From positions 62,001 through 126,000 of the forward strand of contig NW_026867374.1 in assembly GCF_026571515.1 (NCBI RefSeq): a stretch of DNA of 64,000 nt. Reading direction: 5' to 3'. The translations under genes were made by a program, and so were the position numbers. The notes below the pieces were generated by a model. The model did no database searches, had not been told where the DNA came from, and saw only the letters and a program-made list of their open reading frames with translations. Origin of the DNA: Ruditapes philippinarum. Taxonomy: Eukaryota. Shown in pieces: positions 2,860-45,964 of the stretch. The first letter of the stretch is position 1; every line of letters starts with the position of its first letter.

Positions 2860-2943
2860 ATGGAAAAGGACGGTTTACCGCCGCCGTTCCCTTTGACCGC
2901 CGATGAGGCAGCTTTCCGTCTTCCTCCACCTTCTTACGAAGAC
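2860..2943 (+). CDS. Gene A coding exon 1: MEKDGLPPPFPLTADEAAFRLPPPSYED (PPSY)
   Basis: tttcag acceptor at 2854, ATG 2860, gtgagt donor 2944; homologous to 20517-20606. Confidence 0.9.
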
Positions 2944-5900
2944 GTGAGTAGCCACTTTTTAAGACAATTTGATAAATTTTTATCGTCGTTTCTTTATCAA
3001 AACTCCATTAAACTTTATATTAAGAAATTTTATTAAATCGAAAGTATCAAAATTATATTGGTATAAAAATTTGGGAGTGAAACATCTTGGTGTAAACTGT
3101 CTTGGGAGTGAAACATGTCTACATTCAAATCTGTGTTAAAGACCACCTCTGAATAAAAATCACCATTTGCATAAAGGCCACTCAGAGACAATCCTTCATT
3201 GATAATAAAGAACAAAGTAACCTCCATATACAGACCACTTGCCTCGCCCTTGGATGACCTTTGTTAACAGGTTTTACTGTACCTGTTTTCAAAATTGCCA
3301 CTTACCGACATCAAGAAAGAGATGTACAGTCGACATAAAGAAAGAGATATACAGTGTAACACTTTGTTTTTTAAGCTTACAGAACTTACTTTATTTTTGA
3401 ATTTATTTATAACTAAAATGAGAAAACATAAACCAACTAGAACGAGATGATGATTTTACTTTTAAATTTAAATTACAAAAGAACATATTTAACTTTATAA
3501 AGTTTAAAGGCACTCCACTGACTTATTTTTACATAACCAGACTGGATATAGTTTTTTCAAGATTATTGATCCATTTGATGAGGGTTAGATCAATAACTTA
3601 TCTGCAAAATTGCAGATCATAGGCCCAGTTCATTTTCCCAGAATAAATATTCATTGTCAAAGTGAAAATTAACCCTAAATTAAAAAGCGTTGCAACGCTT
3701 TTAACTAAAGTCTGAGTAAGAATTATAGGTCAGCAATACGATTTTCAATATTTCTGGGATGTATTTCTTATTTGTCTTTTGCAGACCTTTTTGTTTAAGT
3801 GTCCCAGCTGTTTTTGATGTTGTTCTTTCATGTAATTGGAATTGGAGTTTCTGTAATATTTACAGATTATGGGAGTGTATCAGACATCGATTAAGGAAGT
3901 GGAAATCAGCCGTGATATTCCTACGTTGGCCTATATAGATTTAATGCCAAAATGTATTAGCAGCGGAAATATAGCGGGGAATGTGGCGCCGAAATTTGGG
4001 GACTATAGGTATGCGTATATTTAGGTACAAAGCATCACATACACACGCGCGTGAGCACGTACGCACGCACACACACATGCGCGCGCACACACGTACACAC
4101 GCGCTCGCGCAATCAAGCAAACAACAAAAATGATAAAGACAAAGTTTGCTGTTTGTATAATATAGAGTTTTATATAGAAATAATCATTTTCATTTCGAAA
4201 TGACCGCCTCCGTGGTCGAGGGGTAAGAGTCGGTGACTTCTAATCCGGTTACCTCTCTTGCGTGGTTCAATCCCCGGGAGATGCTTTGGTTGTTTAGCAC
4301 GGAGGAAGGTAGTCTAGTACTGGTGTAACTCTCCAGGAACGATGGTTAGGAAACTACCCGCCTATATGACTGAAATACTGTTGGGGAAAAGTCGTAAATG
4401 AAACAAACAAACAAACGAAAGTTTCATTGTAAATTATGTAGCGAATTAAAAAGTACGAATAAAGTGTATGGACCAAAGGCCTTATAAATACAGTGACCAA
4501 ATGAATTCTTATTAGTAAATGTATAAATGGTCTACTTTTGTACTAAATTAAACACATTTATCAAATCTTAATTACACGTACTTATAACTCTTCTTATATC
4601 AGCACAAAGTAAGCACAAAAAAGATAAATCATAAGACCGGAAAATACTTTAGGAACTAAAGTTTTATTTTACATTACAGTACGCTCATAGACGCGGCAAA
4701 CCGCTTCCTTATAGATAACCCCAACATGGCTATATGGAAATGTGAGTCTGTGACAAAGAAACTAAGCTGGGACAAGAAAGGAACAATAAGTTACGAACTG
4801 AACACCATGATACGTCACGAAGCGACCTTTGGCTTCTTAGTGTTCATTAAAGGCTTAAGGTAAGTTTTCAGAGATCATATCTAATTCCAGATGGCTGAGA
4901 TATATAGATTTAGTTCTCGTTTCATGTTGCATTTTGCATTTTAAGTTACTTAGTTATACATTTTGTATAATTCAAAAGAATGACAACAAAGATTTTAGTA
5001 TAAGTGCATGTGTTTATTTCATAATGTGAACTGTATAATATGACATTAATTTTTATATATTATATTACAATATACATGCAAACTGGACTGGGTGGTAAAT
5101 ATAAGTCAAACTTGATAAATGAGAGTTCTACATGTAATTCTAAACGCGTGCATGCATTATAAGTTGTCATTATTACAAGCTGTCATCATAAAAAGTTGTC
5201 TCAACGCCCAGTGTGCAGAGTTCGAATTTGGTATTTGCCCAGAGCAGATATATACTTATGTATTAAGTAATAAAATGTGAAACATCTGTGCGTTCTCTTT
5301 CCGTTATACGACATTCAGACATGAAGTCTGAGATAAATATACACTTCGTTATGATATCAGCTGAGTTATAAAATACTGATAAGTTTCTTTTAACGCAATT
5401 ACGAGATATTTAACGAAATTTTAAATAGTTTTGAAATCTTATAGCTGAATAAAAATCTTTTTGTTTGAATCTCTTAAGAACATAATTTACTCATCTACAC
5501 CGCTTCAGATTGACAAATCAGAAGCAAGAATGTCCAAGACTTGTTCCCAGCAATAGTTGCTTATTTCTGTTCATACTTATTTTACCCCCGGTTTTAACTG
5601 CTCAAAGTCAATGCTATGACATGTAAAAGTCATTTTTATGATATAAGTACATGTAGTAAGAAGAAAATTGAATATTTTCTGTGATAATCTAACGTATATA
5701 TGTGTTTCAAGGTTATGGCTGACAAAAGACCCGAACCCAAGAGGTCCTCCTCAACAGATCGGTCTGAAGAACATTGTACCTCGCAAGATGTCTGTAGAAA
5801 TGCCTACAAGAAGAGGCTATTATGGGTACGGTTCTGGATCTTATTTTAGCTAGGATAGTGAAATGCTTTTATCATCTGTATTAAACAGGGCCATATTTTA

Positions 5901-8900
5901 CAAAATAACCAAGCTTTTTTAATGTGACATTTAATTTTATTGATTCAACTGTACTTTTGCTAAAATACCCGAATGTTCTTTCCGGCTCTTGTTTGCGGAC
6001 CTTTTGTATACGACGCAAAATAACTCACTCACTCCCTACCGACCGACCGACCGACCGACCAAAAATTAACAAATTCATGTTGGTTTAATCAATTAAGTAA
6101 TTTCGATGGCTTTGTTTTCTTAAGTGGTGGTAAAGTTACCATCGACGGAGAGCAGTACAAAATGACCAATGGCTTTAACCAGATTGAAGTGCTAGAAAAT
6201 CTCCGTGACACTATGGCAAATATGAAGGAAACCCTTGAAAACGACCCATTACCAGGTAAAATACTATACATTTTTTGTATTCATTGAAATTTCCGTAGTC
6301 CACTGTAATAGGTTTAACGTTACAGGGTCCAACACAGGAACAATATACAGAANNNNNNNNNNNNNNNNNNNNNNNNNNNNNNNNNNNNNNNNNNNNNNNN
6401 NNNNNNNNNNNNNNNNNNNNNNNNNNNNNNNNNNNNNNNNNNNNNNNNNNNNNNNNNNNNNNNNNNNNNNNNNNNNNNNNNNNNNNNNNNNNNNNNNNNN
6501 NNNNNNNNNNNNNTGAATCAATGAATAAGTAAATATATGAATAAATCAATCACCAAATTAATGACATGAAGACTTTGCAATTGTTTTTTTTTTTGCATTT
6601 TTTCTTTTTCAGACAATGCATTTTAAATTAGTTTTGATCATATTTTGGTAATGTTTGATTTTTATTGACTCTAGTAATTGAATAAACAGAAATCTTTATT
6701 TATGCTTAAAGTTTAAACTCTAGAGTATCATCATATAGAATTATGCCAGGTCTGTCTCTTCTAACATATGAAATGTATATGTTGATCTAGTTTTTAGACA
6801 TGTGGTTTCATAACTTCATTTACTGGCGGCATGGCCAAGTGGTTAACGCGTCGGCCTAGTAATTTAAGGATCTCTAGCCGTGCATGTTCAAAACCCGTGA
6901 GGGACAAGCCGCAAGATAATTAACATTCTGTACTGGTCGGTTCCAGGAACAGAGAGTGTGTCTATAATTTTGATTTACCTACACAGTCGAACTAAAATAA
7001 ATTCTGTATAAACTAAACACAGGTACAATCTTGACAATCGAAACAGACAGAATAAAAGCATATGACCAGTTCAAGAGTGACCTTGACCCGGAGTCAACAT
7101 CCTGGTCCGAAAACAAATCACGGTTCCGGAGGTTCACACAAGTTATCCGAATATTTTATATAAAGGGGACCCCGGCCAAGGAAGAAATAGGTATTATAAT
7201 GAACTATTCTTAATAATTTTATCTTAACTTTACCAGCTATCATAATAAATGAAGTACTGATATTACAGAAATAGTTCCTCGTCTCTTAGCTTATAATACC
7301 TGGAGCAGTTCTGAACCTTCCTCTATATTCAGTAAGACCATAACGCCGCCGTAGAAAAGTGGTAATGGCAAATTTCTAACTTATCCCGCACTTATGTGGT
7401 TTTGTGTGTGGAACTTATTCATCTAGCTACGGAGGATCGTTGGTTCTACAAAGTTAAGATAATGTAAAGGCCGCTTTCAGTGAAGTCCATTGTGGCGGAG
7501 AGTTGCCTTTATAGGTTGAGGCCTCAGAATTTCAGCCACCGTTTAACCCTGCGTGATCGTAAGAGGAGACAAAATCTAAATGTGTTCGTATTACTGGAGT
7601 CTATGAATCTCTAAGCTCCAGCAGATGAGGTGGTTTTGAACCCAGGTGTTGTGTAATACCGAGGTTTGCTAATATCGTCTTTACCGTTTCGTCGCCATAT
7701 GACCGAAACTGTTTTAGTGCAAAAAATAATAAAAATGAATACATAAATAAATAAATGAATATATAAAATATTCTAGAAAATATTTAAAAAAATAAATCAG
7801 TGAAGTTTGAAAGCTGTCAGTGTATAAGTTGCATTGTCACATTACTCATAAAATCGGCGAGTTTCTAGTCATACTGGTACTGGTCGCAGCCCTACAGTAT
7901 GACCTATAGAAGGTGGCATCATATGTCCCTCTGTGCCGAAGATACCGATAATTAATTTTTTGAAACATTTAAAACTAATTCAAGCTGAATTTTGAATTTG
8001 ATTTTGATTTAGATTTTTGTCTATTGAAAAGTAACAAATATCAGGACACCAGGTGCTATGTAAACTCTGACATCTATGTATATGATAGGTTATGAAGAAT
8101 TTGTACCAGAGGTATGTGCTGTGGGTGACTCCCTCAAACCTGCCCAGTTCGAACCGTTCGAGAACCTCATGACCCGGCTTGCTTATTGGGTATCAGCTAA
8201 TAAGGTAAGGCACAATTTTCAGTTCTGAACCAGGATTTGCATCAGTAAAAATTGAGCAAAACGTTATTTAAATTTGCATGCCTCCAGATGAGCCAAAATA
8301 TTTCAAGAAAATCAAACTCGAGAAAAATGTTTTAAGATTTTAAGAAAAGATTGACATGTTAACTGCAGTTAATGACTGATTTTGCAGTATTTATCACCAA
8401 ATTTCTGCTGCGTGACTAACGCATTAAGGGCTATTTTTGCATGTTTTGTCCCCTTTTTTGGTAATACACGTGGATTGTCAGTGCCGTTTTCAATCTTTGT
8501 TCAATTCACAATATTTTACTATAAAATTTACTTTTTCATGGACATAAGCATGAATCTGCAGGCACGCTGCTTTAAAATACCTGTCGGGTACACTTGCGAT
8601 TAAGTTAAATTGTTATCAAGGCAAATGGACGTACTCAGGCAGTTTACGGTTTCAGGTTTTTGGACAATTATGATAGCTAGATTTCGTTAGCTATGATATA
8701 CAACTCAAGCCGACTGAAACTTTATTTAGTTTGTTGTTACACCTTATATAAATGTTACACCTTATATAAACCAATGAATTGAATTAAATCGGAACAGTAA
8801 CTAAAGCGAACGTTCTGTCATATTTAAGCTGCAGACCAAAGTTGTAATGCAGTATACATGTATTCATTATTTGCATACATGAATTTTGAATGAATGCTTT

Positions 8901-11900
8901 CTTAAATCTTAAGATACGTAGATAGGTAGGTAACGGACATAAAATTAAATTCACAGTATCACTTTGAGAATATTAAAGTCGGATAGATTGTTATTTTTAA
9001 CTGCTTTTAATGCTTTCAGGGACAACGTATTGTGAATATTCAACAGTATGACGCCATAGTGAATAAATATTTTCGTGAGTTTTTACATTTATACTCGTAT
9101 AAAGCTATATACTTGAATAAGATTTATCCTCACATCTTTTAGTAAATAAATTGTGGTTTTTGTTGTTGAGTTTGTCTTGTTTTAAGTGTTTTGGTATGCC
9201 TAATGTATGTGTGTATGTGTGTGTGTGCACGCGCGCGTTCGTGCGTCCGTGTGCGTGTGTGCATGTCTGTCTGTCTGTGTGTTAACTCCATACTTTACAA
9301 GAATGATGTCGATTTAGGTTTGTTTTGTTGTTTAAGATATCAATCAAGTAGACCTATACCACTTTCATGTGCTATGTTTATAACATAAGTTAACTTAAGT
9401 AAGATTACTTCTCTATTTCACAGACGATGTAGAGGTCTGTTCTGACTCTACGGACGATTTCATCTCAACGTTCCAAGAGCAGCGTTTTGCGCGGACACTT
9501 CGAGTATTCTACACCAAGTCGTCTGCTGTGCGCGCGCTTCCCGCCAATTTCATAACATGTCGTCTGTTTATACCCGCGCGCACTGGTCCCCGAACTTTTG
9601 AATGTATGACACAGACGATGAACAGGATTGATGCCTGGCTCAATGTGACCGGTAACTTCTAGATCACCTTACATAATCAAACAACTGTTTTGGTTTGTCC
9701 TAAAGATAGTTTAAGTTTACTTAACCCAATACCCGTTATACACGCCTTTTAACGCCTTTTTCACCCCCACCCAAATGGTGAAAATGCCTTATTTAGGCCC
9801 CAACACATGTTTTTGTCTGAGGAGAAATGTTGCTTAAAAATAGACCACTTTTTTTGGCGCCGCCCCCATCCAAAAGATACATCAGGGGTTGCCAGAAGGG
9901 GGACGTGCCCCCTTCTGTTTGGAGGTTCATCGCCAAAAAATGTTTGGACTTGAAAGAGGCTAAAAATGACACCAGGTCGATCATAAGGTAACTTGTAACC
10001 AACGCTGGAAAGCCTTTAATTGTCTCTATCTCTATCCATTGAGAAGTTAATCAATTTTGATGGAAAAAATCATAGCAAAATAGTGACTTTTGGCAATTTT
10101 GAGATGTCCCCTCGTTGCCATGGTAACAGAAAATTTTACACTGAGCATGTCGTTACAAAGGCAGTGGTCCAGTTAACATTTGTGCCAAGTTTGATTAGTA
10201 TTGAAGCAGTTTTTATAGTTTTATAGCATTTTGAATTTGTAACGGGAGACTTTTCAATGAAAACAGTCATTTTTCACAAAATGCTCATGAAGTAATGGGT
10301 TAATAATACTAAACGTCCAGAAGAGATTCAAAATATCCTTCATTGCATTTTAAGACAGCGAATGATTAGTATTACCACGGATTTATATTACATCATCTTC
10401 GAGACATCGACCTTAGGGTACTATTTGATATACTGGGAGTCACATCTCTAACCTTAAGGTGCAGCGTCAGTGACACTCAGTCCATCCTTACACCACAGCT
10501 AGTTGTGTCCAACTAAGCATTCAATACCTCACGTTCACTATTTTTTTTGGCTTTGTTTTACTGGTAATCATAAGCACATATTGAATATACAATACATAGG
10601 ATATAAATCAAACTATCATAGAATGAAACTATTTTAGGGTGTATTTGTCTGAACATCTTTCATTCCAGTTTGGAGTTGTAATTGTTTTAAGAGAGGCAAC
10701 CAATCTCGTGATGTGATGCATTCCATAACCTTATATATGCACGGGGATCAATTGGCCGTGTACTTTCATTGTTTGCTTCTCAGTAAACATAAAACGGATT
10801 CGAGCCCTACTAGGGAAAATGCCATCAACGATGGCCTTACCAACTGGTTATTTCCAGGAAGAGGACTCTATCTAGAGTCATTCAGATAAAATTCAAGCTT
10901 TCATTACGATTGAGCTAAACTAAATATCTTTGAACTAAAAACTAAGGTATCCACTGGTGAAGCTTATATCAATATTACTTTCTGTCTCGACTTTGCCTGA
11001 ACTAGTTCATGGTATGTAGCTTATAGCTTTCAGCAGTTAAGCAGGAAAGTCGCAATATGACATCCTATCCCGTAAATGTCGAAAGTATTTGGTGACGTTT
11101 GAAGTAACTTGCTAATTGTTTTTTTCAGGTCTGCCTATATTTTCTGTGGAGACTGTAGAGTTATTGTTCAATGATCATACCCCACTGGGAGCAGATTGTG
11201 TGAAATCGGACTACAAGGCACAACAATTGTCGGGCAAACACTGGATAACAGCTATCAGGTAGCTTTAATGAGTTGATACTGTAAAACCCGTGTCAGACAT
11301 CATTTCTGAATCTAGGAATCCTTTTACAAGGAACCTCAATCTACATTTTTTTCTCGTGATCGATTTTATTTTACGATTACAGGTCATGGTCCAGGTTTTA
11401 ATAATGTAATTTTCGGACAAACAAGGGTATATATTACATTATGTAGTAAATACATACACCATAGGACGAACTGCATGCTTGTTAATTTTTAATATTTTCT
11501 TGTTATTTTACAAACAACATTTGAACTCCTAGTAAAACATTCACAACTTATATTAGCAATTGTCATAAACAACTAAGGAAAACACAATCAGGTTTTACAG
11601 TTTCTTTCTTTATCATAGTCTCATCTATCGTATATAAACAATTTGCATATAAAACATTGGCGCACAGACAATGAAAATCATATTCTGTTAAGCAATTCTT
11701 AGACTGATTAGAGGGATAACTCTTCAGCACATATTACTTTAGTGAAGATTCACTGCAGATTTGTCTCCCTTATTTGTTCATTAGAACAACACCTGATGAA
11801 AGTTATTATTTTCATGACAGTTACAATTTTTACTAAAACATTTCAGATATTCTCACACTGTATGAAATCGAATTACCTTTGATGTAAGCCGGTACATGTG

Positions 11901-12185
11901 TATTACATTACAGGAATAACAAAGTCAGTTTATTTTTTAGATGAAAATCAGAAGTTGTATTGTATACTGACTTTGATATTAATTATATCTAACCGATAAA
12001 CCCAGGGTCCTATTGTTCTTTTTTTTTAATTTGCTAAGAGATAATTAAATCTTAATAAATATTTATATATATATTTAAGGGTATACTTCACTACGCCGTT
12101 CAGTGAGCCTAACCTGGATCTTTTACCCCCACTACCAGTGTACATGACCGGCGGATCAAAGTCGAAATCGTGCAATATTCTTTGA
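2860..12185 (+). CDS. Gene A: uncharacterised 484-aa protein with N-terminal PPxY, four ~100-aa repeats and C-terminal CaaX (CNIL); 11 coding exons
   Basis: Exons 2860-2943, 3866-4008, 4680-4859, 5712-5825, 6125-6255, 7023-7190, 8089-8204, 9020-9074, 9424-9651, 11129-11258, 12080-12185. All introns are GT-AG with matching phases (0,2,2,2,1,1,0,1,1,2). The spliced 1455 nt is open to TGA. Every exon has a homologous counterpart in gene B. Confidence 0.9.
3122..3279. mobile_element. Tc1/mariner-type MITE (degenerate)
   Basis: TA flanks; left end cattcaaatctgtgttaa is an imperfect inverted match to right end ttaacaggttttactg; internal gaccac repeats. Confidence 0.45.
3507..3730 (+). mobile_element. 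Kolobok-like MITE fragment; related inverted copy at ~17690-17895
   Basis: ttaa|aggcactccactga start; internal aaagcgttgcaa also present near 17700; the other copy ends tcagtggattccct|ttaa. Confidence 0.4.
3866..4008 (+). CDS. Gene A exon 2: IMGVYQTSIKEV...APKFGDY
   Basis: tttacag / gtatgc boundaries; 143 nt, same length as gene B exon 2. Confidence 0.9.
4040..4110. repeat. (CA)/(CG) alternating purine-pyrimidine microsatellite
   Basis: acacacgcgcgtgagcacgtacgcacgcacacacacatgcgcgcgcacac seen directly. Confidence 0.8.
4202..4416 (+). mobile_element. tRNA-derived SINE
   Basis: A-box-like gtggtcgaggggt, B-box-like ggttcaatccc, 3' 'cgcctatatgactgaaatactgtt' and (AAAC)n tail. Confidence 0.75.
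4680..4859 (+). CDS. Gene A exon 3: TLIDAANRFL...FIKGL
   Basis: ttacag / gtaagt boundaries; homologous to the 5' part of gene B exon 3. Confidence 0.9.
5712..5825 (+). CDS. Gene A exon 4: LWLTKDPNPRGPPQQIG...RRGYY
   Basis: ttcaag / gtacgg boundaries; homologous to the 3' part of gene B exon 3. Confidence 0.85.
6125..6255 (+). CDS. Gene A exon 5: GGKVTIDGE...LENDPLP
   Basis: ttttcttaag acceptor (alternative in-frame AG at 6097), gtaaaa donor; ends DPLP versus DPIP in gene B. Confidence 0.8.
6353..6513. other. Assembly gap (N run) in gene A intron 5
   Basis: 161 Ns. Confidence 1.
6822..7018 (+). mobile_element. tRNA-derived SINE abutting the gene A exon 6 acceptor
   Basis: tggccaagtggttaa A-box, gttcaaaaccc B-box, 'ctggtcggttccaggaac' core, tail aaataaattctgtataaactaaac. 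Confidence 0.75.
7023..7190 (+). CDS. Gene A exon 6: TILTIETD...VIRIFYIKGTPAKEEI
   Basis: cacag / gtatta boundaries; 168 nt, same as the gene B counterpart. Confidence 0.9.
8089..8204 (+). CDS. Gene A exon 7: YEEFVPEV...AYWVSANK
   Basis: gatag / gtaagg boundaries; homologous to 24428-24546. Confidence 0.85.
8272..8571 (+). mobile_element. Kolobok-like MITE (TTAA target); second copy at 35777-36106
   Basis: TTAA on both sides; internal sequence (cagatgagc..., cagtatttatcacca...tgtgactaac) shared with 35777-36106. Confidence 0.6.
9020..9074 (+). CDS. Gene A exon 8: GQRIVNIQQYDAIVNKYF
   Basis: tttcag / gtgagt boundaries; 55 nt, as in gene B. Confidence 0.9.
9205..9282. repeat. (GT)/(GC) microsatellite
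   Basis: tatgtgtgtatgtgtgtgtgtgcacgcgcgcg... seen directly. Confidence 0.8.
9424..9651 (+). CDS. Gene A exon 9: DVEVCSDSTDD...RIDAWLNVT
   Basis: ttcacag / gtaact boundaries; open frame; 3' half highly similar to gene B. Confidence 0.9.
9725..10299. mobile_element. piggyBac-like non-autonomous DNA transposon
   Basis: TTAA|CCCAATAC ... GTAATGGG|TTAA: CCC-initiated short TIRs with TTAA duplication. Confidence 0.65.
10750..10940 (+). mobile_element. Degenerate SINE, same family as 6822-7018
   Basis: ggattcgagccc B-box, ctggttatttccaggaa core, gagctaaactaaat tail. Confidence 0.55.
11129..11258 (+). CDS. Gene A exon 10: LPIFSVETVELLF...GKHWITAI
   Basis: ttttcag / gtagct boundaries; 130 nt, as in gene B. 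Confidence 0.9.
12080..12185 (+). CDS. Gene A exon 11: VYFTTPFSEP...LPPLPVYMTGGSKSKSCNIL* (CaaX)
   Basis: tttaag acceptor; TGA at 12183-12185; homologous to 27027-27126. Confidence 0.9.
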
Positions 12186-12899
12186 TGGTCTTTGTCATAA
12201 CAGCCTGCAGAAATAGATAGAACTGTTTTTGACGAAGAATATATCCGACAGCAATGTTCAGTTCCCATATATGTGGCAGAAAAAGGTCAAAGAAACTCCA
12301 CTGAGGTCCAAAAGCCTTAAACATAACTTTTGAATTTCTTACACAGACCAGTTGGGTCACTTAAAATAGAAAGCTATCCTAGTAAAGTTAAGAAATATAC
12401 TCCGAATAAATTAAAAATCTTATTTTTGTGCTATTCTTATAGACAGGACTGATTTTGAGAATTTGGCTCCCTATAAGATACTAGAGGCATTTTGTAGTAC
12501 AAGTGGTATCTTGGTGTATTTAACCTATTTAAGGTATGCTGAATCCGATAAAGGTGGATACCAAATTGAAAAACTTGATCTTGACTATTGAAATGGCCAT
12601 TTAAAATGAACACTAAAATGGACGCCAAATTTCTTTATCATAAATAGATGATAGAGCCTGAAATTTGTCACAAAGCATGTTTAGGTAAAAACTAATTTGA
12701 CACCAAAACATAATTTAAAAAGAAAAACAATCCAATAGAGCCGTCCTATCTGCTTTCATGTATTTTATCTGGCACTCTATGCAAGCATATAGAAAGGCTA
12801 CTCAGATGCCTACTTACACAGCCTGCTATGTGTGAGGGGGTTAAAACATGTGCATGCAAAATATACATTAATTAAAGGCACCTTTCTCTTGGGTTTTGG

Positions 12900-13880
12900 A
12901 GTTCTCTTTTTGTCAGTTCTTCTCTTATTAGTCGTGATCTTCGTTCTTCTGTAATTGGTCCTGATCTCAATTTTTTTTGTTGTTAGACGTTCTGTTGTCG
13001 GTGCTCATCTCTGTTTTAATGTTATCGGTCATCGTCTTCGTTCTACTGTTATCGGTTCTCGTCTTCGTTCTTCTCCGTTCTTCTGTCATCTGTTCTGTCT
13101 CTATTTTTCTGTAATCAGTTTAATTGTTGTCAATTCTTCTGTCAGCAGTCCTCGTCTATGTTATTCTGTTATCAATCCTCTCTCCGTTGTCTTGTTGTCA
13201 GGTCTTCTGTTATCGTTCACTGTTCTGTTCTTTTCTTCTGTAATCAGTCCTGGTCTCCGTTTTCATGTCGTCAATTCGTCTTTTATCGATACCCGTCTAC
13301 ATTCTTCTGTCATCAGTTTTCGTCTATGTAATTCGTTTATCAATCCTCGTCTTTTGTTGTCAGTTCTTCTTTTATCGGTCCCTGTCCTGTTCTGTTATCG
13401 GTGCTTCTCTATCTTTTCTTCTGTAATCAGTCCTGGTCTCTGTTTTTATGTTGTCAATTCTACTGTCATCGCTTCCCGACTCCATTCGTCTGTCATCAGT
13501 TGTCATCTATGTTATTCTATTATCGGTCCCCGTCTCTATTTTTCTGTTATCTGTCCTCGTCTCCGTTGTCTTGTTTTCAGTTCTTCTGTTATCGTTCTCT
13601 GTCTCTGTTATCTGTCCTCGTCTCTGTTGGCTTGTTGACAGTTCTTCTGTTATCGGTCCCTGTCTCTATTCCTCTGTTATCGGTCCTCGTCTCCGTTCCC
13701 TTGTTGTCAGTTTTTCTGTTATCGGTCCCTGTCTCTGTTCTTCTGTTAGCGATCCTCGTCTCTGTTCGCTTGTTGTCAGTTCTTGTCTCCGTTCTTCCTT
13801 CTGTTATCAGTCGTTGTCTTCGGTCTTGTACTTTCGGTACTTGTTTCCTGCTCCGATAAGGTCTTCTCTTGTTTCTTTCG
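12900..13880. repeat. Pyrimidine-rich degenerate minisatellite (units such as tctgttatcggtcctcgtctc)
   Basis: Dozens of diverged tandem units; they explain the long S/V/L/C-rich ORFs in all frames. Confidence 0.85.
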
Positions 13881-13941
13881 TTGCCGTCATTATGTGTCCA
13901 TGTCCCAGTTTCACCAGTCTTGTAGTTATTTATTCGTTCAG

Positions 13942-14014
13942 TAGAGTAGCGGGGATCGAACTCACGACCCCTTGATTTGTAGGCAGACAGTGTTACCACT
14001 GCACCATAGCGCCC
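13942..14014 (-). mobile_element. tRNA-like (SINE head) sequence, not a functional tRNA
   Basis: Minus strand GGGCGCTATGGTGCAGTGGTAACAC...GGTCGTGAGTTCGATCCCCG has A and B boxes, but the acceptor and anticodon stems do not pair. Confidence 0.65.
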
Positions 14015-15747: not shown

Positions 15748-15895
15748 TTTGTTTGTTTGTGTGTAAGATGAAATTTTATTTCATCGAGTGGGCTTTAAAA
15801 ACAGTATTCCCACGTGTGGCGTGGCCACGAGTGAGAATACTGTTTTTAAAGTTCACGAGATGAAATAAAATTACATCTGACACAACAAACAAACA
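15748..15895. repeat. ~150 bp imperfect palindrome, probably part of a non-autonomous (possibly Crypton-like) DNA element
   Basis: agatgaaattttatttcatcgagtg...aaaacagtattc-ccacgtgtggc / gccacgagtgagaatactgttttt...cacgagatgaaataaaattacatct. Confidence 0.6.
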
Positions 15896-18432
15896 CATTT
15901 TATTTTTATTTTATGCTCAAAAATAAGTTAAAACGAAATTTCCTTGATAGCAACTTTAATATTTAAATCTGTTTTCCCCACTTGTAGCCTCTATTATGTA
16001 CATGTATTAGTCGAATTTCTCTTAAAATACAAGAATTCTTGGGCTGAAAAATAAGTTCGACAATCAACGTTAAATGTCGATGATATTATTCATTTTATTA
16101 AAAAAAATACGAATGATCGCTTAATTTAATAATAAAAACAACAATTTTAGTAGGAGAAGAAGTTCGACCATCCATCCATATTTCTGTTACTTACTGCGAA
16201 TATATATTTGATCTGGCTCTGTTAAATGTAAGCGGCCGCCATTTTTAAAAAGTTGTGTATTTCACTGGAGGAAAATAATTGTGTTTGATTCAGAGGGATA
16301 TCATTTGGATTTGTAAGTCATACACCTTTTTTAAAGAAAGAAAACTTATTTGAGGATTGTAACAGACAATAAATAAGTGTTGACAGATGTTTAAACATTT
16401 AAAAAGTGGCTAGGGAATATGAAACTTGGAATTGTTGAAAGTACTTATTCTTTGGGCTGATGGCTGTCATTGCTTTTCAAGTTTTCATAAAGCATACGGC
16501 AGTTATTGCTCGTAGGAAACTTAAATATGCCCAAATGTCATCAAGAGCAGTTTTGCATGTGGAAGGAATGTATTTTTCAGACTGTTAAAATGAAACAATC
16601 AATTAAGGGACGATATTTGCTGATTGGTAATTTGGATAATAGAAGTAAGTTTTCTTCTTTTTATTACTTTTGACATTTAAGTTATTTATCAATTTCAGCT
16701 TTGCTTTTCTCTAAACAGTCTGACATTGTCAGAATTGTCAGCAAAAATAAAATTAAGGTACCACATGTGGAAAATCTTAAGAAAGTAGTTTCGTCATTGA
16801 AAAGTGTGAAATTATTTTTTTATAATTTTCACTGTGAAATTATGAAATATAATTTTCACGGATAAATCAGTATTCCACTGAAAAGCATAAAATTAAAAAA
16901 AACTATAATACTAATGTTAGTGAAAGTCACATCTGCTAAAAGTGTACACGTCAACGCTACTTTCGCAGTAGCACAGCCGGTTAAGTGATTGACTGATGTG
17001 TGAGAGGTCTATGGTTTGATTCCTACCGTTGCCTTTTTTAAGACCTACTGTTGTTTTTTTTGTTGTTGTTGTTGTTTTGGGTGGGGGCGCAGTATATATT
17101 TTAAGAAATTTTTGTCTCAGTTTGTGTTGTGTTTATGGCATTGAAATGACATTTTTTGACATTTCAAAATAGTTTTTAAATATTCATTTTAAACCATAAA
17201 TTACGAAGTAATTACGAAATATTAATTTGTTATTACGAAATATTTATTCTTTGGTAATACTTATAAACTAAGTTTATTGTTAGATATAAGTCAAGTAAAC
17301 ATTTTTTTTTCAATCTTTGTCATATACCTTAACGCGATAGGATAGTAAAACAGTGCTGTATATACCGTTTATTGAGCCATAAGGCTTATAATCGCTATAT
17401 TTGGTGGCCAATCTCATTAAAATCTGATCATATTGAATAATCATTTGATTTTGACAAGAATAGTTAATTGCATCATATTGTATCATAGTTTTAATGACTT
17501 ATTTTACTATTTTAAGCGGCGATTTTCAATTGACCTTTTGAAGGTCAATGTCAATTTTATTTTCTTGGTATCCACCCTCATCGTCTTCAGCATACCCATA
17601 TTAGGTTAAAACACTCAAGATATTACTTGTACTATAAAATGCCTCTAGCATTCATATTTTCTTAAAATCAGTCCTGTCTATTAGTCCGATTTGAGTGAAA
17701 AGCGTTGCAAGGTTTTTCAATTTTGGGTCACTTTTTACAACTAAAAAATAATTATTCTGGACAAATAGACGGAGCAAATGATCTGAAATGTTGTATACAA
17801 GTTATTAGTCTATACCTACAATAAGTGGAATATGAATCTTAATTTTTTTTTTATTTCTAGTCCAGTTTTTAAAAAAACCTTCAGTGGATTCCCTTTAATG
17901 AAATGAAGAAAATCTTGTTGTTTTTTTTACATGTTCAGGCATAAATATATGTTTGTGTTTCTTATAAGTTGTGATATACATGAAGAACTTTGTCATTCTA
18001 AAACTGTAAGCAGGTTCCGTTATTGAAGACAATAAGCTTATAGTGGATGCGTTACTTCTAATCTTTTGATAGAAGAAGATAGTATTGGACAAGTGTTATT
18101 AAAGAAACTTAAACTATAAATCATAAATATCATACAAAATATTTTTGTCTGTTACTTACTTTAGAAAGGCATTTACATGAATATAGGCATGAACATGCTT
18201 GTACATAAGAGTGCTTTCATTATAAACATTTAAACGATATTTGAAATGTTGTAGATTTTTTGTTATAAATGATGAAAATGTTTTGTGTTATTGTGATTTT
18301 CTTCTTATGGTTCAAACTGTTTAATAAAACATTTGTTTGTTCGTTTGTGTTTTAATCATTATAAGTATTATTATTATCATTATTATTGTTGTTGTTGTTT
18401 TTTGGTTATTATTATTGTTGTTGTTTTTTTGT

Positions 18433-18816
18433 NNNNNNNNNNNNNNNNNNNNNNNNNNNNNNNNNNNNNNNNNNNNNNNNNNNNNNNNNNNNNNNNNNNN
18501 NNNNNNNNNNNNNNNNNNNNNNNNNNNNNNNNNNNNNNNNNNNNNNNNNNNNNNNNNNNNNNNNNNNNNNNNNNNNNNNNNNNNNNNNNNNNNNNNNNNN
18601 NNNNNNNNNNNNNNNNNNNNNNNNNNNNNNNNNNNNNNNNNNNNNNNNNNNNNNNNNNNNNNNNNNNNNNNNNNNNNNNNNNNNNNNNNNNNNNNNNNNN
18701 NNNNNNNNNNNNNNNNNNNNNNNNNNNNNNNNNNNNNNNNNNNNNNNNNNNNNNNNNNNNNNNNNNNNNNNNNNNNNNNNNNNNNNNNNNNNNNNNNNNN
18801 NNNNNNNNNNNNNNNN
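18433..18816. other. Assembly gap (N run)
   Basis: 384 Ns, flanked by (TTA)/(TTG) simple repeats and poly-C. Confidence 1.
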
Positions 18817-20117
18817 TCCCCCCCCCTAAGTTACGTTAGCGATGTCTGATGCTAAAAGCCATCGTTGTATACCCCCTCGACTGTTGTAACGACAAAACAA
18901 TAACAACAAAACAACGGTGAAACATTGGTATAGATTTATCTTATCAGTCCAATAATTTTCATTTCTCTCCAACGCCTTGGACGGAATTTTGAAGAAAGGT
19001 ACCAAACAATGGTGGTGTTGGTAGTTTTCGCTCCGGATCACGGCAGTAAGCCACATAGATTTTACCAGAGCACAATCGTTCCTGGACAGGTACAGTGTGA
19101 ATAACCGTTGAAAGAATTTCTCAATCAATCACAATGCACCGTTCAGGAATCGAGCTCGGATCGCCCAATTCACTGTCCAACGCTCTAATTATTGACCGGC
19201 TTACACTGTTAACTAACCGGACGGTGCTAGTATCTGCAAACAATATTTATGTATATTAACCAGGTACCCGTGTCCGGGTTAGAAGTCCGATATTCATACA
19301 TAAACTATCGATAAAAAGTACAATACTTTCAACACGGCAGTATTGCAGTGGTCTATATAACCGGTTAAGCTTATTTCAAAATACACAAATGTAGAAATTA
19401 AAAAGAGACACAAGGAATATCAGAACAGGCAGTGATAAATGTGCGATATAAAGTCATTTTAAAACAAAACCTAGTTCTAAAAATGTGACTGATTAATGAC
19501 AGATCGATTAACTGCAAGGTAAGAATTGTATTTCAATATTTATACATGTAAATAGATCAATACACGGTTATCAGGTTATTAAACATGTTGTACGATATGA
19601 ACTTAAAGGGTGAATATGCTTTGTTTACGTTTGTTATTGGTGATGTAATGGGGTCATGTTTTTAATAATTCGTCGATTTGTTGAGTTTCATAAAATCACT
19701 GTAAAATATTAGTTTAAACGCCTTTTTTCGCGACCATATAACATTGTAGAATAATAGTTAAACCCGTTTTTTACGCGTAAAATAATAGCTTAAATCACAT
19801 TTCGCAACCATATTATAGCAATGTAAAATGATCGTTTGACTATAAGATTAAAGTTTTTTTCGTAATCGTTCCAAAAATAAATATATATATTTAAGACCTT
19901 GGGATTTAAGTTTGTTTGTATATAAAAACTTAAACTTTTTTTTAAATAAGTAAATATTGTCTAAATTACAATTTGTCATTCTTAGTACCCATAGTTTGTC
20001 AAAAATGCTCAAAAATCACAAATATTGTTCAACCATATGGCTAATGCTTCCGGCATAACCTTTAGTATTTATATACTAATAGATTACAAAGGTTCTATAT
20101 TGTATATAATTGTTAGC

Positions 20118-20348
20118 TATGGTGGCTGATTTGTGCCATGTCAAATTTTCGCTCCGCGGGCGCCTGGCGAAAATACGAAAATGCGGTAAAACACCACTTT
20201 GTCGTACTTTCGGTCCGCGGGGCGTGGTGACTTCGCCAAGTGCGCCCCGCGAAGCGAAAGTACGACAAAATGGTGACTGTTGTATTTTCGTGTTTTCGCC
20301 CTGCGCCCGCAAAGCGAAAGTACGACATGGCACAAAACAGCCACCATA
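20118..20348. mobile_element. IS3EU-like MITE (TATGG...CCATA termini)
   Basis: TIR tatggtggctgatttgtgccatgtc / gacatggcacaaaacagccaccata; internal gcgaaagtacga repeats resemble 61667-62538; flanks gttagc/actagc may be a decayed 6-bp TSD. Confidence 0.6.
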
Positions 20349-20516
20349 ACTAGCTTTTACATGTTAGTACTTTTTTCTGTGGACATAAACTTATATCATA
20401 TAAAATATATTTGATACTATTTCAGAGAAATGTGAAGTACTGTGTCGAATCATTGCAAGCTAAAGTGGGTATTCATATCTTAATGCAATATTAAATCAAT
20501 TAGAAAAGACATCACG

Positions 20517-20606
20517 ATGGAGAAAGGAGATGAAGGACGGTATCCACCAAATGTATTCACGGCCGATGAGGCGGCATTCCGCATTCCACCACCAACTTAT
20601 GAAGAG
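20517..20606 (+). CDS. Gene B exon 1: MEKGDEGRYPPNVFTADEAAFRIPPPTYEE
   Basis: ATG 20517, GT 20607; TADEAAFR shared with gene A. Confidence 0.9.
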
Positions 20607-23600
20607 GTTTGATTAGTCTATAATTATCATAATTACAATAATTTATAAGTTTCCTGAAGTTTATAATATGTAAAGTGAATATGCAACGTTTTGCTGAACT
20701 TTTGTTAGATTTAATGGCTCTACCATCAGAACTTGCTAAGTTATACATGTACGTATAAAAATATAATTGAGCCGTGTCACGACAAAACCAACATTGTGCG
20801 TTTGCGACCAGCATGGATCCAGACCAGCCTGCGCATCCGCGCAGTCTGATCAGGATCCATGCTGTTCGCTATCAGTTTCTCTACTTGTAATAGGGTTGGT
20901 AAGCGAACAACATGGATCCTGATCAGACTGCGCGGATGCGCAGGCTGGTCTGGATCCATGCTGGTCGCAAACCCATTATGTTGGTTTTGTCATGACACGG
21001 CTCAATTATATAATCTGGATAAGTGAATACCCGCGACCAGCAGCGCGGGGCTTCTATCAGGTGCTTGATAATCCAATAGTGTCCTTCCCAACTACTACGA
21101 CTAACTGATACATAATTTGTTGATATCTTATTGTATTCAATTATTATTTTAGATATCTATTTTTTTCCTCTTATAATTAGATAATTATATGAGAAAAGAC
21201 ATTCAATACCATCGATTTTTCATAATTATAAAATCTTACATTTAATAGCCGAACAGACGAGAATATCTGGCTGGATATATAAATTTAAAAGACAGTAACA
21301 GGCCTTGAAGTATACATTTTTCCCCTAATACCTTTATACAAATATACAGCAACAGTTTAAAAATCGGCGCTTTAATCGACATGTTAACTCGACAGAAAAT
21401 GTGAAGTTTTGATTTTAGTAAGCTATTTAAAAAGAACACACTATATTTTTTTGTATAATTAAGAGCTTACATGTATTACATTCTCTACAGGTGATGGGAG
21501 TTTACCAAACATCGGTCAAATCTATTGGTCAGACATCGGACATATCACCGCTCGCATACATAGATATAATGCCAAGATGTCTTAAAGTCGGTAATATCGC
21601 TGGGAAAGTAGTTCCAACATTCGACGACTTTAGGTATAAACCGATTAGAAATCAATTAAAAAAAAAATTATGATATTCATCAAGAAAAACACAGAAAACA
21701 TTAGGAAAACGATAAAAATATCAAGCATTAAGTACTTACCGCTTTAAGTCATTCCAAAATTACTGTTTGCTGGATGACATAACATGAAAGCATGTCTATT
21801 AAAGCCTTTAAGTATGATCGTTTGCAGTCATCGTTATTGCGGTTTAGCCCTATGCAGAATGCGCATGTGCGAAATGCCGCATCCGTTTCTGTGGAAAAAT
21901 TCTATCGTAAAAAGGTCTATTGTCTCCAAAACTGTAAGAAACTAACAGTTCTTATTTCAGATAAATACACGTATATTGAACATGTTTAACATTTCTGATT
22001 TGCAACAGAATACTACTTAAGCATACATATTTACAAAAGACTTACTACGGAAAAAATGATATGAGATCGCTAGTTTAAACTTATTAATTTAATTTCAGCG
22101 CAATTGTTGAAGGGGCAAACCGCTGGCTCCAGGACAATCCGGGACTCAGTGTTTGGAAATGCGAGACAATCATCAGAAAATTGACACATGGTAAAGACGG
22201 TTCACTAAGTTATGAACTGAATGAAATGTTGAGACACGATTCAACATTCGGATTTATTGTGTTTATAAAAGGTATCAGATTATGGTTGACAAAGAAGACA
22301 TTGGCTGGTCCACCTCAACAACTAGGTATCAAAACTGTAGTCCCGGAGAAAGTCACTATTGAGGTCCCTATGAATAGATATAGGTAAATAAAATTATTTG
22401 ATTTACATACAAACATAATAAATGATAACACAAGTTGAGGAATACGTACAAAATGTTGGTAACTTACATGATACAAAGACTTTAAGATGCCCATATCGGC
22501 TTTTCGTTACGTAATGAATGTAAGTAAACATAAACTGTTTAACATGGGATGTATCTATCTAATATAACCAATACAACATTTACTTACTACGACGACTAAT
22601 TATCTGAGAATAAGATATTTTGCATTTTTATTTGTTTTGTTCAAATATTATTTTCTTTTCAAGAAATAAGCATGTTCTATAAACTAACATACCATATAAC
22701 TTCAAGGTATCATCATATCTTTACACTTTTTGGAGTCACGTGTGATATAATTAGACTATCATTGACTGTTAATAAAGTTACATACACTTTCAACTGACTT
22801 TTTATTTCACTTTTTATTTAGAGGTGGCCGAGGACGGATTATTATCGGTGGCGAGGTTGTTACTCATTTAAATACTAACATGTACACAGTAACAACATTT
22901 GAGGGGCTGGAAGATACCATGAAGAAGTTACAAACGAAACTGAAGGACGATCCAATACCAGGTTTTTATCATATTTGTTTTTCTTTTCGTCTTGAAAATG
23001 AACAATGGCAACAAAAACTTTACCATTTTATGTTTGAATGTTGAATTCTGCTTAAGCCGGTGTTAGGGGGCGTAGACGGTAACTTGCATTTTCCATTACC
23101 ATCCCTGAACATGCTCAATCAAACCGAGCCTGCATCATTTTGAAATTTGTTGTTTTGGGGTTTTGTACAAGTCTTGCTTTTAAATTAGTTAATCTATCTA
23201 CACGATTTGTGATAACTTACCATATTCTTAAATATTATCGAAGTAATAAAGATTGATTGATGGGAAACAATAAATTCACCAATATAATCATGAAATTGCG
23301 TTTACATGTTCATTAATAATGATGATGATGGCGGCAATAAGTATGATGGTGGTGTTGACAAATCCTGTATACGTGAATATGATGATGATGATAACGATGA
23401 TAATTGCATGGATAATTATCGATTAAGCTGACGACGACAGTAACAAGTATAACGATGATGATGTTGATGCTGATGATGAAGACGTGGGTAATTAGACTGA
23501 TGACGACAGTAACAAGTATAACGACGATGATGTAGATGTTGTTGATGATGATGATGATGATGATGATGGTGGTGATGATGACGTGGATAATTAGGCTGAC

Positions 23601-26600
23601 GACGACAGTAGCAAGTAGAACGATGAGTATTATGATGTTTTGATGATGATGATGAATATTTCGACAATTTGCATAATTGGATTCTGAACTTACTATTTAC
23701 TACTGGTACTGTTACCGAGTGTGAATGCGTTTCTAGATATTTTTTTATCATATACAACATTCTAATATTATGCAAACAGGTACTGTGCTTACAATAGAAA
23801 CCGACAATGTGAAGGCGTATGAAGGTCTGCAAAAGGACTTTGATCCGGAGAGTACGTGTTGGTCTGAGAATAAAGATAAATCACAAAGAAATACACAGGT
23901 TATCCGAATATTCTACGTCAAAGGATCACCTACAAACGCAGATATTGGTAAAAACTTACCTTTAGTGATATAGTATATAGTTACCTATGAAAAAAATAAA
24001 ACATAAGATTTATGCTTTGATTTTAATAAATAATTCTTTTGTAAGGTTAATAATTCATTGTATGTTTGAATAATCAAACTTAAGACATGTAGTAGTAATG
24101 TGGTCAAAATCCTCCTTTGATTTTTTCCGTTGCTTATGCGTGCTGTAACTTCTTTAGTAACATCATTTTCCTCGTAGCAGTTATCCCCCACTCTCTCATT
24201 TTCTTACAGAAGCATAGCTTCACGATCCCGCTGCGAGGTGTATATAGAAATATAACCTTTATTTATTACATTTATGCGTGGCAATAATAATGATATTTGC
24301 TAATACTAAAATAAGACGAAAATCAAAACAAAAACAAAAATGATAGAACAATAACTTTATTTTTATAAGCTTATTGTTTTATCTTATTATTGCTGGAATA
24401 ATTGTCAGTATTGCATCACTTTTGTAGGCTACACAGAGATCATACCGGACGTGAAAGAACAACCGGAATCGGCACTTAAACAAGGGAAGTTTGAAAACTT
24501 TGACAACGTTTTATCTTCATTAAGTCAATGGGTGTCTAAAAACCAAGTAAGTAATGAGTATTGTTTTAAAGTAAGTGTTCAGTTTAACATGACCGTCTGG
24601 CACCTCAATAAGTTCATTTTCTCTGTTTCGATTTTAATACAGGCCCGACACTATATCACATGGATACTCATTTCCTTTAACTAGCAGAGGGAGAAGTCGG
24701 AACTCGGAAGCATTCGGCTATCTGGGTAGACCACGCAGACGTTCTTTAAGCTGACTGGACTGGTGCCTCAAATGAAACCAATGAATTACAGGGAGTTTTG
24801 GAAACACGGTGTACTTGCAAAAAGACATAGCTCCATCGCCAGATCGCCATTCGCGAAACATAAAATGTATAAATATTGACAATGTCGTCTGTATCTGAAT
24901 GTATCTATCGACTGAATGCTAGTAACATTGATGAATATTTTTCAGGGGCTACGGGTTGTCAACATTCAGCAATACGACGCTTATGTAAAATCCTCAATGT
25001 GTAAGTAGATGACAGCGTATACATTTGATGAGAAATACAAAGATGTTGTTATCATTATTAAACCAAAGTCTAAGCATACTGTTTCTGACATAATGCATAA
25101 TTTCTCCTAAAAGTCTAGAAGTTCAATATGCAACATTTTACACTGACATGTGGCATGTTACTTCTTTGTCACCCAATTGCACAATTATTTTTGTTACGAC
25201 CTTCTTTAAGAGTACTGAATATCCCACATATGTTGTTTAAGCACACAAACCTGTCGTGAAAATCTATCACAAAGTCGGTTTGTGTCCTTATAATCGGGAA
25301 TGTCCTATTTATTCACACATTAGTGTTTCATATTATATGCTCATTCAGTATTATGACTTCTACCAAGTCATCAATATATCTATTAATGATTACATCTCTC
25401 TCAGTAACAGTCAGTTACGTCACATCTATTCTACGATGACACGGGTCTAGTTCTGTAGACGTATGCACATATTAGGATTTACACAACAGCTTCTAACGGT
25501 GTGCCACCTAGTATTGTGACGTCACGTTTGTTTTTACCTGCTCGGACAGGAAGACGGACATTTGAATGTATGACACAGACAATGGAAAGAATTGATGCTT
25601 GGCTCCGTGTGACAGGTAAATAACTCGTGTTGTCTGATTAACTTGCAAGTAGTCATTCTTTGCTGAAAGCAGTTTTAAGGCATTTTTGTAAAATTTAATT
25701 AAATTGTTGTTACATTGTACCATCGATTCACGTAACTTGGTCATTCAGAATATAAGACAAATGGTCGTACTGATGTTTTTCTTGAAAACGTTCATGTCAA
25801 TAACAGGATCGCCATTATACGGCTATATATATGATATTGTAATTGTTTTAATGGTTTTAATAGATAGTGTATTGGAATAAATTGATTTTCATTAACTAGG
25901 GATTCATAAAATGTAGTGTAATGATTTCCCTTTGACTTCTCCAAACAAATAACTTGTGTGATGTAAAAACTTATCAAGTCTTATTGTACTGTCCGATATA
26001 AGAGTTTGTGCCATCAAATAGAAGAAGCGGTATTTTCTTATTCGTATTCTTCAACACGTTTCAATGTTAAAAACATCTTCTATACAAATATGGCCACACA
26101 CAAGGCAATTGTATTTACTTTCATACATGTATTTTTGAATAATTTGAAAGGTGTGCCAATCTATTCGGTCGAAACAGTGGAGCTTTTATTTAACGAGACG
26201 AACCCAGATGGCGCCGACTGTACACGTTCAGAATACACCGTCCAGGCTCTGTCAGGCAAACATTGGTTGACGGCAATCAGGTACTGCTACTACACTGTAT
26301 ATGTATATTCCCTTTGGTAAAACGCAGGTTTATTTCGAACATCCTAACATCTAGCAGATTCTCCTACTAGAAACATGTTTTCTTTGGTAAAATACAAGTT
26401 TCTTATGAACCTTTAAGTAAACCTTTTCTAGGTTCTTCTACTAGATACGCGTTTCTTTTCTGAAATGTAGGTCTGTTTGTAATACATAAGTTAACTTCAC
26501 TGTTGAACACGGCGTTAGCCGATTCTTATATAGGTTTTGCAACTGTGTACACATCCATTAGAATCTACTCAACAGAGTAAAATGACATTCTGATTTGCCT

Positions 26601-27126
26601 TCACCACTTGTTTTTTGTTGTTGTTGTTGTTGTTGCCATTTTGACAGAACGTTGTTACTTTGGGCACCATTATGTTTTATTTTATTCTAAAAATAAACCG
26701 AGCCACACGGGTTATATATACCGTTGTAACTTGATATGAACAAGGCTTGCTTTTATAATGATTTGATATGGATGTGTTGGACTTGGTAATTAAACACGTG
26801 GTTGATAAAAATTGTATCCAACATTGATTATTGGAAGATCAAATGTTGCAAAGGGTGAAAGTTTATTAGTTACATTTTATAAGGGAAAAAATTAGTATTT
26901 GAACTGTAAAACCTAGCGAGACAGGACTTAAACAATTAAAACGTTGTATTTTGACTATTAAATAAAAAACATAGTGACTATTTTTGTGACAGCGTAGTGG
27001 AATTGGTCAAATATTTTATTTTACAGGGTGTACTTCTGTGGACCATATATTGAGCCAGATCCAGCTATGCTACCACCACTTCCGGTCGGTAAACACGGAG
27101 GTTCAAGTTCATGTCTTATTTTGTAA
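20517..27126 (+). CDS. Gene B: paralog of gene A (PPTY, four repeats, C-terminal CLIL); 10 coding exons, exon 8 disrupted as assembled
   Basis: Exons 20517-20606, 21491-21633, 22099-22383, 22822-22961, 23780-23947, 24428-24546, 24946-25000, ~25405-25615 (5' half frame-disrupted), 26151-26280, 27027-27126. GT-AG introns with the same phases as gene A. Confidence 0.8.
20766..21006. mobile_element. Palindromic (foldback) MITE; second copy at ~35010-35236
   Basis: Near-perfect ~110-bp inverted arms attgagccgtgtcacgacaaaaccaac...gttggttttgtcatgacacggctcaat with TA/TATA flanks. Confidence 0.85.
21491..21633 (+). CDS. Gene B exon 2: VMGVYQTSVK...VPTFDDF
   Basis: ctacag / gtataa boundaries; 143 nt. 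Confidence 0.9.
22099..22383 (+). CDS. Gene B exon 3 (equals gene A exons 3+4 fused)
   Basis: tttcag / gtaaat boundaries; reads ...FIKGIRLWLTK... without an intron. Confidence 0.9.
22822..22961 (+). CDS. Gene B exon 4: GGRGRIIIGGE...LKDDPIP
   Basis: tttag / gttttt boundaries; homologous to 6125-6255. Confidence 0.85.
23318..23655. repeat. (GAT)n microsatellite with three diverged ~70-bp units
   Basis: gatgatgatg runs and repeated 'ctgacgacgacagtaacaagtataacgatga'; explains the poly-His minus-strand ORF. Confidence 0.85.
23780..23947 (+). CDS. Gene B exon 5: TVLTIETD...VIRIFYVKGSPTNADI
   Basis: aacag / gtaaaa boundaries; 168 nt. Confidence 0.9.
24428..24546 (+). CDS. Gene B exon 6: YTEIIPDV...SQWVSKNQ
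   Basis: ttgtag / gtaagt boundaries. Confidence 0.85.
24946..25000 (+). CDS. Gene B exon 7: GLRVVNIQQYDAYVKSSM
   Basis: tttcag / gtaagt boundaries; 55 nt. Confidence 0.9.
25405..25615 (+). CDS. Gene B exon 8; 3' part intact (IRIYTT...RLFLPARTGRRTFECMTQTMERIDAWLRVT), 5' part frame-disrupted
   Basis: In-frame TAG at 25456-25458; the 5' part aligns to gene A 'VCSDSTDD' only if several single-base deletions are allowed. Confidence 0.7.
26151..26280 (+). CDS. Gene B exon 9: VPIYSVETVELLF...GKHWLTAI
   Basis: gaaag / gtactg boundaries; 130 nt. Confidence 0.9.
27027..27126 (+). CDS. Gene B exon 10: VYFCGPYIEPDPAMLPPLPVGKHGGSSSCLIL* (CaaX)
   Basis: ttacag acceptor; TAA at 27124-27126. Confidence 0.9.
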
Positions 27127-29483: not shown

Positions 29484-29735
29484 CGATCGAGAAGTTGAGG
29501 ACGTTGACATCAAACCACTAGCTGCTGTGGGTTCGAATCCGAAAGGACTTTGGACTTTTTCATATGACGAAGCTAACCAGCTAGCTTTTGGAACGTCGGT
29601 AGTTCTACTCAGGTACCCGTTCGTTGCTAAAATAACGTATGGAAGGGCACCTGAGGTCTTCCTCCATTATTCTATAAGCTGAATAGTCGCCATATGACCT
29701 GTACTGTGATGGTGCGACGTAAAACCCAACAGAAA
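29484..29735 (+). mobile_element. SINE (5'-degenerate)
   Basis: gggttcgaatcc B-box, 'ggaacgtcggtagttctactcaggt...gaggtcttcctcca...gtcgccatatgacc...gtgcgacgtaaaaccc' body. Confidence 0.75.
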
Positions 29736-33693: not shown

Positions 33694-33783
33694 ATGGAAG
33701 AGGAAAAGAAGGATGTTAATCTGCCGTCAGAAACTCCGGCCAATGAACATCAATTTCACCATCCTCCTCCAGAATATAACGAG
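33694..33783 (+). CDS. Orphan first coding exon V1: MEEEKKDVNLPSETPANEHQFHHPPPEYNE (PPEY)
   Basis: ATG 33694, 30 open codons, GAG|gttagt phase-0 donor; aligns to gene A/B exon 1 (A[D/N]ExxFxxPPPxYxE). Confidence 0.8.
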
Positions 33784-45889: not shown

Positions 45890-45964
45890 ATGGATAAGGA
45901 ATATTACAAGGTTTATAATCAATCGGATCTACAATTCCGCCATCCGCCGCCAGAATATACAGAG
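45890..45964 (+). CDS. Orphan first coding exon V3: MDKEYYKVYNQSDLQFRHPPPEYTE (PPEY)
   Basis: acaATGG context, 25 open codons, GAG|gtgagt consensus phase-0 donor; QFRHPPPEYTE resembles V1 QFHHPPPEYNE. Confidence 0.8.

Follow-up and report, generated by a model that had tools for sequence, protein, structure and literature searches.

A tandem clam gene family joining a PY motif, a four-repeat core and a CaaX box: candidate prenyl-anchored adaptors of NEDD4-family ligases

The NDFIP, ARRDC and LITAF proteins are adaptors of the NEDD4/Rsp5 ubiquitin ligases, to which they are coupled by PY motifs (PPxY). Other adaptors of this type (Commissureless, or Comm, PRRG1-4, CYYR1 and yeast Rcr1/2) share an extended PY motif with acidic and hydrophobic residues after the tyrosine, such as GLPSYDEAL in Comm, which binds Nedd4, and GLPSYEQAV in PRRG4 (excerpts of PMC5578492). 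PY-motif adaptors are membrane-associated, the anchor being a transmembrane helix or an arrestin/LITAF domain. A CaaX anchor on a ubiquitin-pathway protein is found in FBL2/FBXL2, USP32 and MUBs (PMC1847700, PMC4996978), and earlier predictions of prenylated adaptors in the ubiquitin system include FBL2 (PMC1847700); these proteins have unrelated folds, and their action, via SCF, on E2s or as a protease, does not involve a PY motif. Here we describe two paralogous genes, A and B, in a 64-kb stretch of the clam Ruditapes philippinarum (contig NW_026867374.1, positions 62,001 to 126,000; hereafter the window, whose own numbering is used throughout). Their products carry the same extended PY motif and would likely use the same ligase family, but they have neither type of anchor and combine a CaaX box with a four-repeat globular core.

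Gene A (2860-12185, + strand) has 11 exons and 10 GT-AG introns, giving an open frame of 484 residues that is 73% identical over 487 columns to RefSeq LOC123540686 of Mercenaria. Its splicing comes from the model and homologues, transcripts having been mapped to gene B only. Its exons are as follows (from the gene model; the first and last also from a motif scan):

2860..2943, +, coding exon 1, with the extended PY motif (PPSY 2926-2937) and a phase-0 donor
3866..4008, +, exon 2, where repeat 1 begins
4680..4859, +, exon 3, helix and strands of repeat 1
5712..5825, +, exon 4
6125..6255, +, exon 5, helix of repeat 2
7023..7190, +, exon 6, strands of repeat 2
8089..8204, +, exon 7, where repeat 3 begins
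9020..9074, +, exon 8
9424..9651, +, exon 9, where repeat 3 ends and repeat 4 begins
11129..11258, +, exon 10
12080..12185, +, last coding exon, with a proline-rich tail, LPPLP (12123-12137) and the CaaX box CNIL (12171-12182), then the stop (CNIL-stop 12171-12185)

Gene B (20517-27126, + strand) has 10 coding exons with phases as in gene A, one A intron being absent, and its provisional model is 53% identical to A (exons from the model and transcript contigs unless noted):

20517..20606, +, first coding stretch, with the PY motif (PPTY 20589-20600); the exon itself starts near 20426 and has a stop in frame before the ATG
21491..21633, +, exon 2 (model and spliced contigs)
22099..22383, +, exon 3, equal to exons 3 and 4 of A with the intron between them absent
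22822..22961, +, exon 4
23780..23947, +, exon 5
24428..24546, +, exon 6
24946..25000, +, exon 7 (model; contig depth in the same bin)
25487..25615, +, exon 8, 3' part only; about 105 nucleotides of its 5' part, present in transcript contigs, are absent from the window, where a TAG (25456-25458) lies in frame
26151..26280, +, exon 9
27027..27126, +, last coding exon (motif scan and contigs), with LPPLP (27070-27084), the CaaX box CLIL (27112-27123) and the stop (CLIL-stop 27112-27126); spliced to exon 9 and followed by the 3' untranslated region in contigs

Four runs were mapped on 20400-27300: three contig sets, whose origin from RNA is only guessed, and one low-depth set of raw RNA reads. Contig pieces skip the predicted B introns, joining exons 2-3-4-5 (X1 record 2), 5-6 (X4 record 9) and 9-10 (X4 record 10, which continues beyond the stop), so that the CaaX exon is included in transcripts and not spliced past; a variant listed within the CaaX codons is synonymous. 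The PPxY exon is the first coding exon of B, not its first exon, a contig (X4 record 6) having 166 nucleotides upstream of its portion aligned at 20424. In this assembly gene B is not open: all acceptors tried for exon 8 led to the TAG at 25456-25458, to a frameshift or, via a weak donor, to a protein 27 residues shorter. Contig X7 record 12 has 280 nucleotides between exon 5 and 25487, which, less exons 6 and 7, leaves 105 (on the assumption that both exons are used whole) and gives an in-frame exon 8 of 234 nucleotides. Because these extra nucleotides restore the frame, gene B is expressed intact in the X7 sample, the window sequence being due either to an error of assembly or to a deleted allele; the 105-nucleotide piece was not found elsewhere in the 64 kb. 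The tandem cluster of paralogues seen in a first-pass annotation of this DNA is confirmed, and longer than it then appeared (two further PPEY exons, see below), with the qualification that one of its members is broken as assembled.

Three other observations concern the region of gene B. The window at 25415-25486, ahead of the 3' part of exon 8, mismatches the transcript contigs, which have 105 other nucleotides there. Contigs of run X7 contain two versions of the last exons (26151-27126), with 3 versus 10 differences in about 130 nucleotides; the source is either strong heterozygosity or a further paralogue that is very close in sequence. A palindromic interspersed repeat of about 250 bp, resembling a miniature inverted-repeat transposable element and of very high depth in all four runs, lies at 20761-21011 and again at 35010-35246.

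The PPxY first coding exons, the LPPLP stretches and the CNIL and CLIL ends stand on the + strand where the first-pass annotation had placed them, and its statement that there is no obvious signal peptide or long transmembrane stretch holds (highest 19-residue hydropathy 1.17 for A and 0.96 for the provisional model of B). Motifs alone are nevertheless weak evidence, since CxxL-stop is found at 27 places when all six frames of the window are read (PPxY occurs 5 times, 4 of them in a first-exon-like context on the + strand); the case is carried by exon context and conservation. Conservation was measured in a strict set of 88 members with four full repeats, in a thinned set of 44 at <40% identity, and in a broad set of 178 stored proteins, and for both terminal motifs it is far above chance. 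A CaaX box is present in 76/88 strict and 36/44 thinned members, compared with a Cys frequency of 1.8%, and PPxY lies in the leader of 54/88 (shuffle mean 2.9, maximum 10 in 1000) and 23/44 (mean 1.6, maximum 6). The broad set has Cys at -4 in 107 of the 124 proteins aligned as far as the profile's C-terminus, and a leader PPxY in 60 of 103 N-complete proteins versus 3.8 by shuffling. The combination first noticed in A and B recurs across distant homologues, in 47/88 and 18/44. PPLP, which had been taken for a group II WW ligand, is not conserved (9/88 and 3/44) and lies in a stretch predicted to be ordered (predicted local distance difference test, pLDDT, 95-97), and that role is not supported.

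In the predicted lipid-anchor box the a2 residue is I, L or V in 106 of 107 homologue boxes, and among 76 boxes the final residue is L in 34 and I, V or F in 13 (47 together), whereas 29 end in S, M, Q or T; because of these 29, the family signal is best read as one of predicted prenylation and not, as first proposed, of geranylgeranylation alone. CXXL itself is usable by either prenylation enzyme, according to an excerpt of PMC1847700. An extra Cys just upstream of the box, present in 18/76, is a possible palmitoylation site.

At the other end of the protein, the PY motif has the family consensus PPPSYEE[VAI] and its distance from repeat 1 varies between 8 and 51 residues, in leaders that cannot otherwise be aligned, as would be expected of a selected linear motif. 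This bears on the idea that PPSYEE is mainly an intramolecular strand, structural or autoinhibitory, which docks on the core and binds WW domains only incidentally. The leader is indeed predicted to be ordered in the Mercenaria orthologue of A, and the flanks ADEAAF and MGVYQTS are conserved among close relatives; in distant phyla, however, the motif floats between unrelated flanks, and it is swapped freely among alternative first exons (see below), and we think such a purely structural role improbable.

The body of the protein is made of four repeats of about 90 residues, each predicted to fold as beta-alpha-beta-beta, in the order strand-helix-strand-strand (AlphaFold pLDDT 91.5), while the last 13 or so residues are predicted to be disordered (pLDDT 57 and 48), as expected of a flexible anchor linker. 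The family has no match in Pfam, NCBIfam or PDB, and no known family was matched; nor do 28 individual repeats have a match in Pfam. In ESM Atlas the nearest to one repeat is an unnamed bacterial cluster of 95 residues (template modelling, TM, score 0.64/0.65 over 78 residues), and the Cse60 and DUF4177 clusters reach 0.43-0.50 by query; all of these are below the bar for naming a family. These nearest predicted structures (Spore_Cse60 PF10957, DUF4177 PF13783 and unnamed Bacteroidota/Cyanobacteriota clusters of 90-95 residues) are single-repeat and bacterial, unlike the four-repeat animal family. By predicted structure, the unnamed clusters are candidate single-repeat relatives. There is also a likeness, which we regard as an analogy only, to the C-terminal domain of KCTD5 and to H1 of KCTD8-12-16, whose three strands run antiparallel with a single helix inserted after the first, and of which several copies act together; as an oligomer, the KCTD5 domain serves a ubiquitin ligase as its substrate receptor (PMC10348674). 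KCTD proteins have a BTB domain, which was not found in Pfam scans of our family.

We think it possible, and would put the chance only a little short of even, that A and B are prenyl-anchored adaptors of NEDD4-family ligases for endo-lysosomal sorting. The lipid tail predicted by the CaaX rule would keep the protein at the cytosolic side of a membrane, where the four-repeat core would grip a putative membrane partner (the cargo), and the N-terminal PY motif would recruit a WW-domain ligase of the NEDD4 family, which would ubiquitinate the partner and so direct it to endo-lysosomal sorting. Paralogues and isoforms without PPxY would be ligase-free versions, the choice of first exon tuning ligase recruitment. 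In the way it would work the family is like the PY-motif adaptors, but it falls outside NDFIP, Comm/PRRG, ARRDC and LITAF, whose anchoring domains were looked for without success: hydropathy shows no transmembrane helix in A or B, and no Pfam family of these types was found among 103 scanned members.

Several observations favour the main rival explanation, a core that is itself a membrane-tethered ligand-binding or catalytic module, the PY motif being only its own degron or signal for sorting and turnover. In 103 aligned sequences the last strand of each repeat has a near-invariant Arg (R134 99%, R259 100%, R356 100%, R449 94%) and the middle strand a Glu or Gln (E96 98%, E223 89%, Q319 86%, E413 96%), one pair per repeat; if the four repeats form a closed ring about a common axis, these residues could line a site in its middle. 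The PY motif is lost in 34/88 members, and the core is kept where it is lost. Dodecin and DUF74, small oligomers of the same topology that bind small ligands, are among the tied structure matches. On the other hand, no enzyme or ligand-binding family was matched by sequence or fold, and the Arg/Glu pairs may be mere structural salt bridges. We regard this explanation as possible but doubtful.

The first-pass annotation had also considered late-domain function and microvesicle budding. Viral matrix and Gag proteins likewise combine PPxY with a membrane anchor, and the family might, like ARRDC1, be a cellular late-domain protein whose lipid anchor and PPxY drive outward budding via ESCRT; P[TS]AP is indeed present in 5/88 members (shuffle mean 1.45, maximum 4). 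However, A and B contain neither P[TS]AP nor YPxL, ALIX-type motifs are not enriched (8/88 versus 21 expected), and there was no significant match to viral structures. Only 5/76 CaaX members have the polybasic patch expected for firm targeting to the plasma membrane, which speaks against such targeting. Nothing found here supports budding specifically, and we consider it very unlikely.

A profile of four homologues retrieved 349 representatives at E <=0.001, of which 150 were examined. Named members come from bivalves, gastropods, annelids, a brachiopod, a bryozoan, chelicerates, an ostracod, a tardigrade, a priapulid, a hemichordate, amphioxus and a tunicate; no vertebrate, insect, nematode or cnidarian was seen among about 50 rows checked by name, which is not equal to absence. 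A quick tree places A together with LOC123540686 (support 100) and B together with LOC123540761/LOC128549190 (90), so that the A/B duplication is older than the divergence from Mercenaria. Locus numbers that almost follow one another, in Dimorphilus (9047, 9052, 9054, 9055) and Sinanodonta (038898, 038900), together with four Mercenaria loci apparently on one contig, suggest repeated tandem expansion. A separate mollusc clade (support 100; P0031, P0039, P0042, P0046, P0048, P0051, P0060) has no PPxY, and its CaaX boxes, most of them preceded by an acidic tail containing Trp, have S or Q as the last residue; to judge from these motifs, it is apparently a farnesylated, ligase-free branch.

The cluster reaches beyond 27126 via two further first exons with PPEY, found when a profile of 17 database leaders was used to score 889 candidate ATG-to-GT exons of the window:

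33694..33783, +, orphan first-exon copy with PPEY, from ATG to a phase-0 GT (leader profile, 33 bits)
45890..45964, +, second orphan first-exon copy with PPEY and a phase-0 GTGAGT donor (leader profile, 19 bits)

The exons of A and B score 52-55 bits, the next candidate 7.6 and six controls <=6.7. Neither orphan has a protein body within the window. In Mercenaria a third paralogue, LOC123541053, has RefSeq isoforms (predictions, compared here as protein sequences) in which six different leaders, X1-X6, precede one identical body of 457 residues; X2, X5 and X6 have PPxY, X1, X3 and X4 degenerate forms, and a seventh isoform, X7, lacks the leader. On the simplest interpretation the orphans are likely alternative first exons of the orthologue of this gene, its body lying beyond the 64 kb, although they could be relics. 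As two spare motif-bearing first exons, they would probably let the third copy switch ligase docking on and off.

The first-pass annotation lacked both the core of four repeats and the variability of the first exons. A broader proposal, which we find rather unlikely but worth stating, takes in both: an undescribed class of NEDD4 adaptors, widespread among invertebrate bilaterians, with a prenyl instead of a transmembrane anchor, in which four repeats of a single chain would form a ring, without precedent among solved structures, that reads the cargo. In clams, a protocadherin-like array of alternative first exons would then give one constant body a PY motif that works or is weakened, or none at all. 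No description of the four-repeat family was found in the literature, supplements being outside the search. If true, the combination of prenyl anchor, four-repeat core and PY motif would be a new architecture for NEDD4-type control of membrane proteins. Its function is directly testable, given a confident model, single-substitution knockouts of both motifs and natural isoforms with and without PY. Even if the adaptor scheme fails, this is a well-folded, conserved and unnamed family worth a domain definition: its range takes in molluscs, tardigrades, amphioxus and tunicates, but it is missing from Pfam and no relative has a solved structure.

Finally, between and after the orphan exons are two local multi-copy duplications (28195-32480 and 50263-55367), with units of about 1.5 kb that are 84-92% identical and have no coding match to the four-repeat family. 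The segment 32735-33100 is, by eye, a homopolymer-rich, error-like copy of the adjoining repeat, which suggests a poorly polished stretch of the assembly. Further along lie a tandem array of a 145-bp unit (5.8 copies, 59963-60844) and an element of about 870 bp (61666-62539), whose 273-bp terminal inverted repeats flank a 22-bp array.
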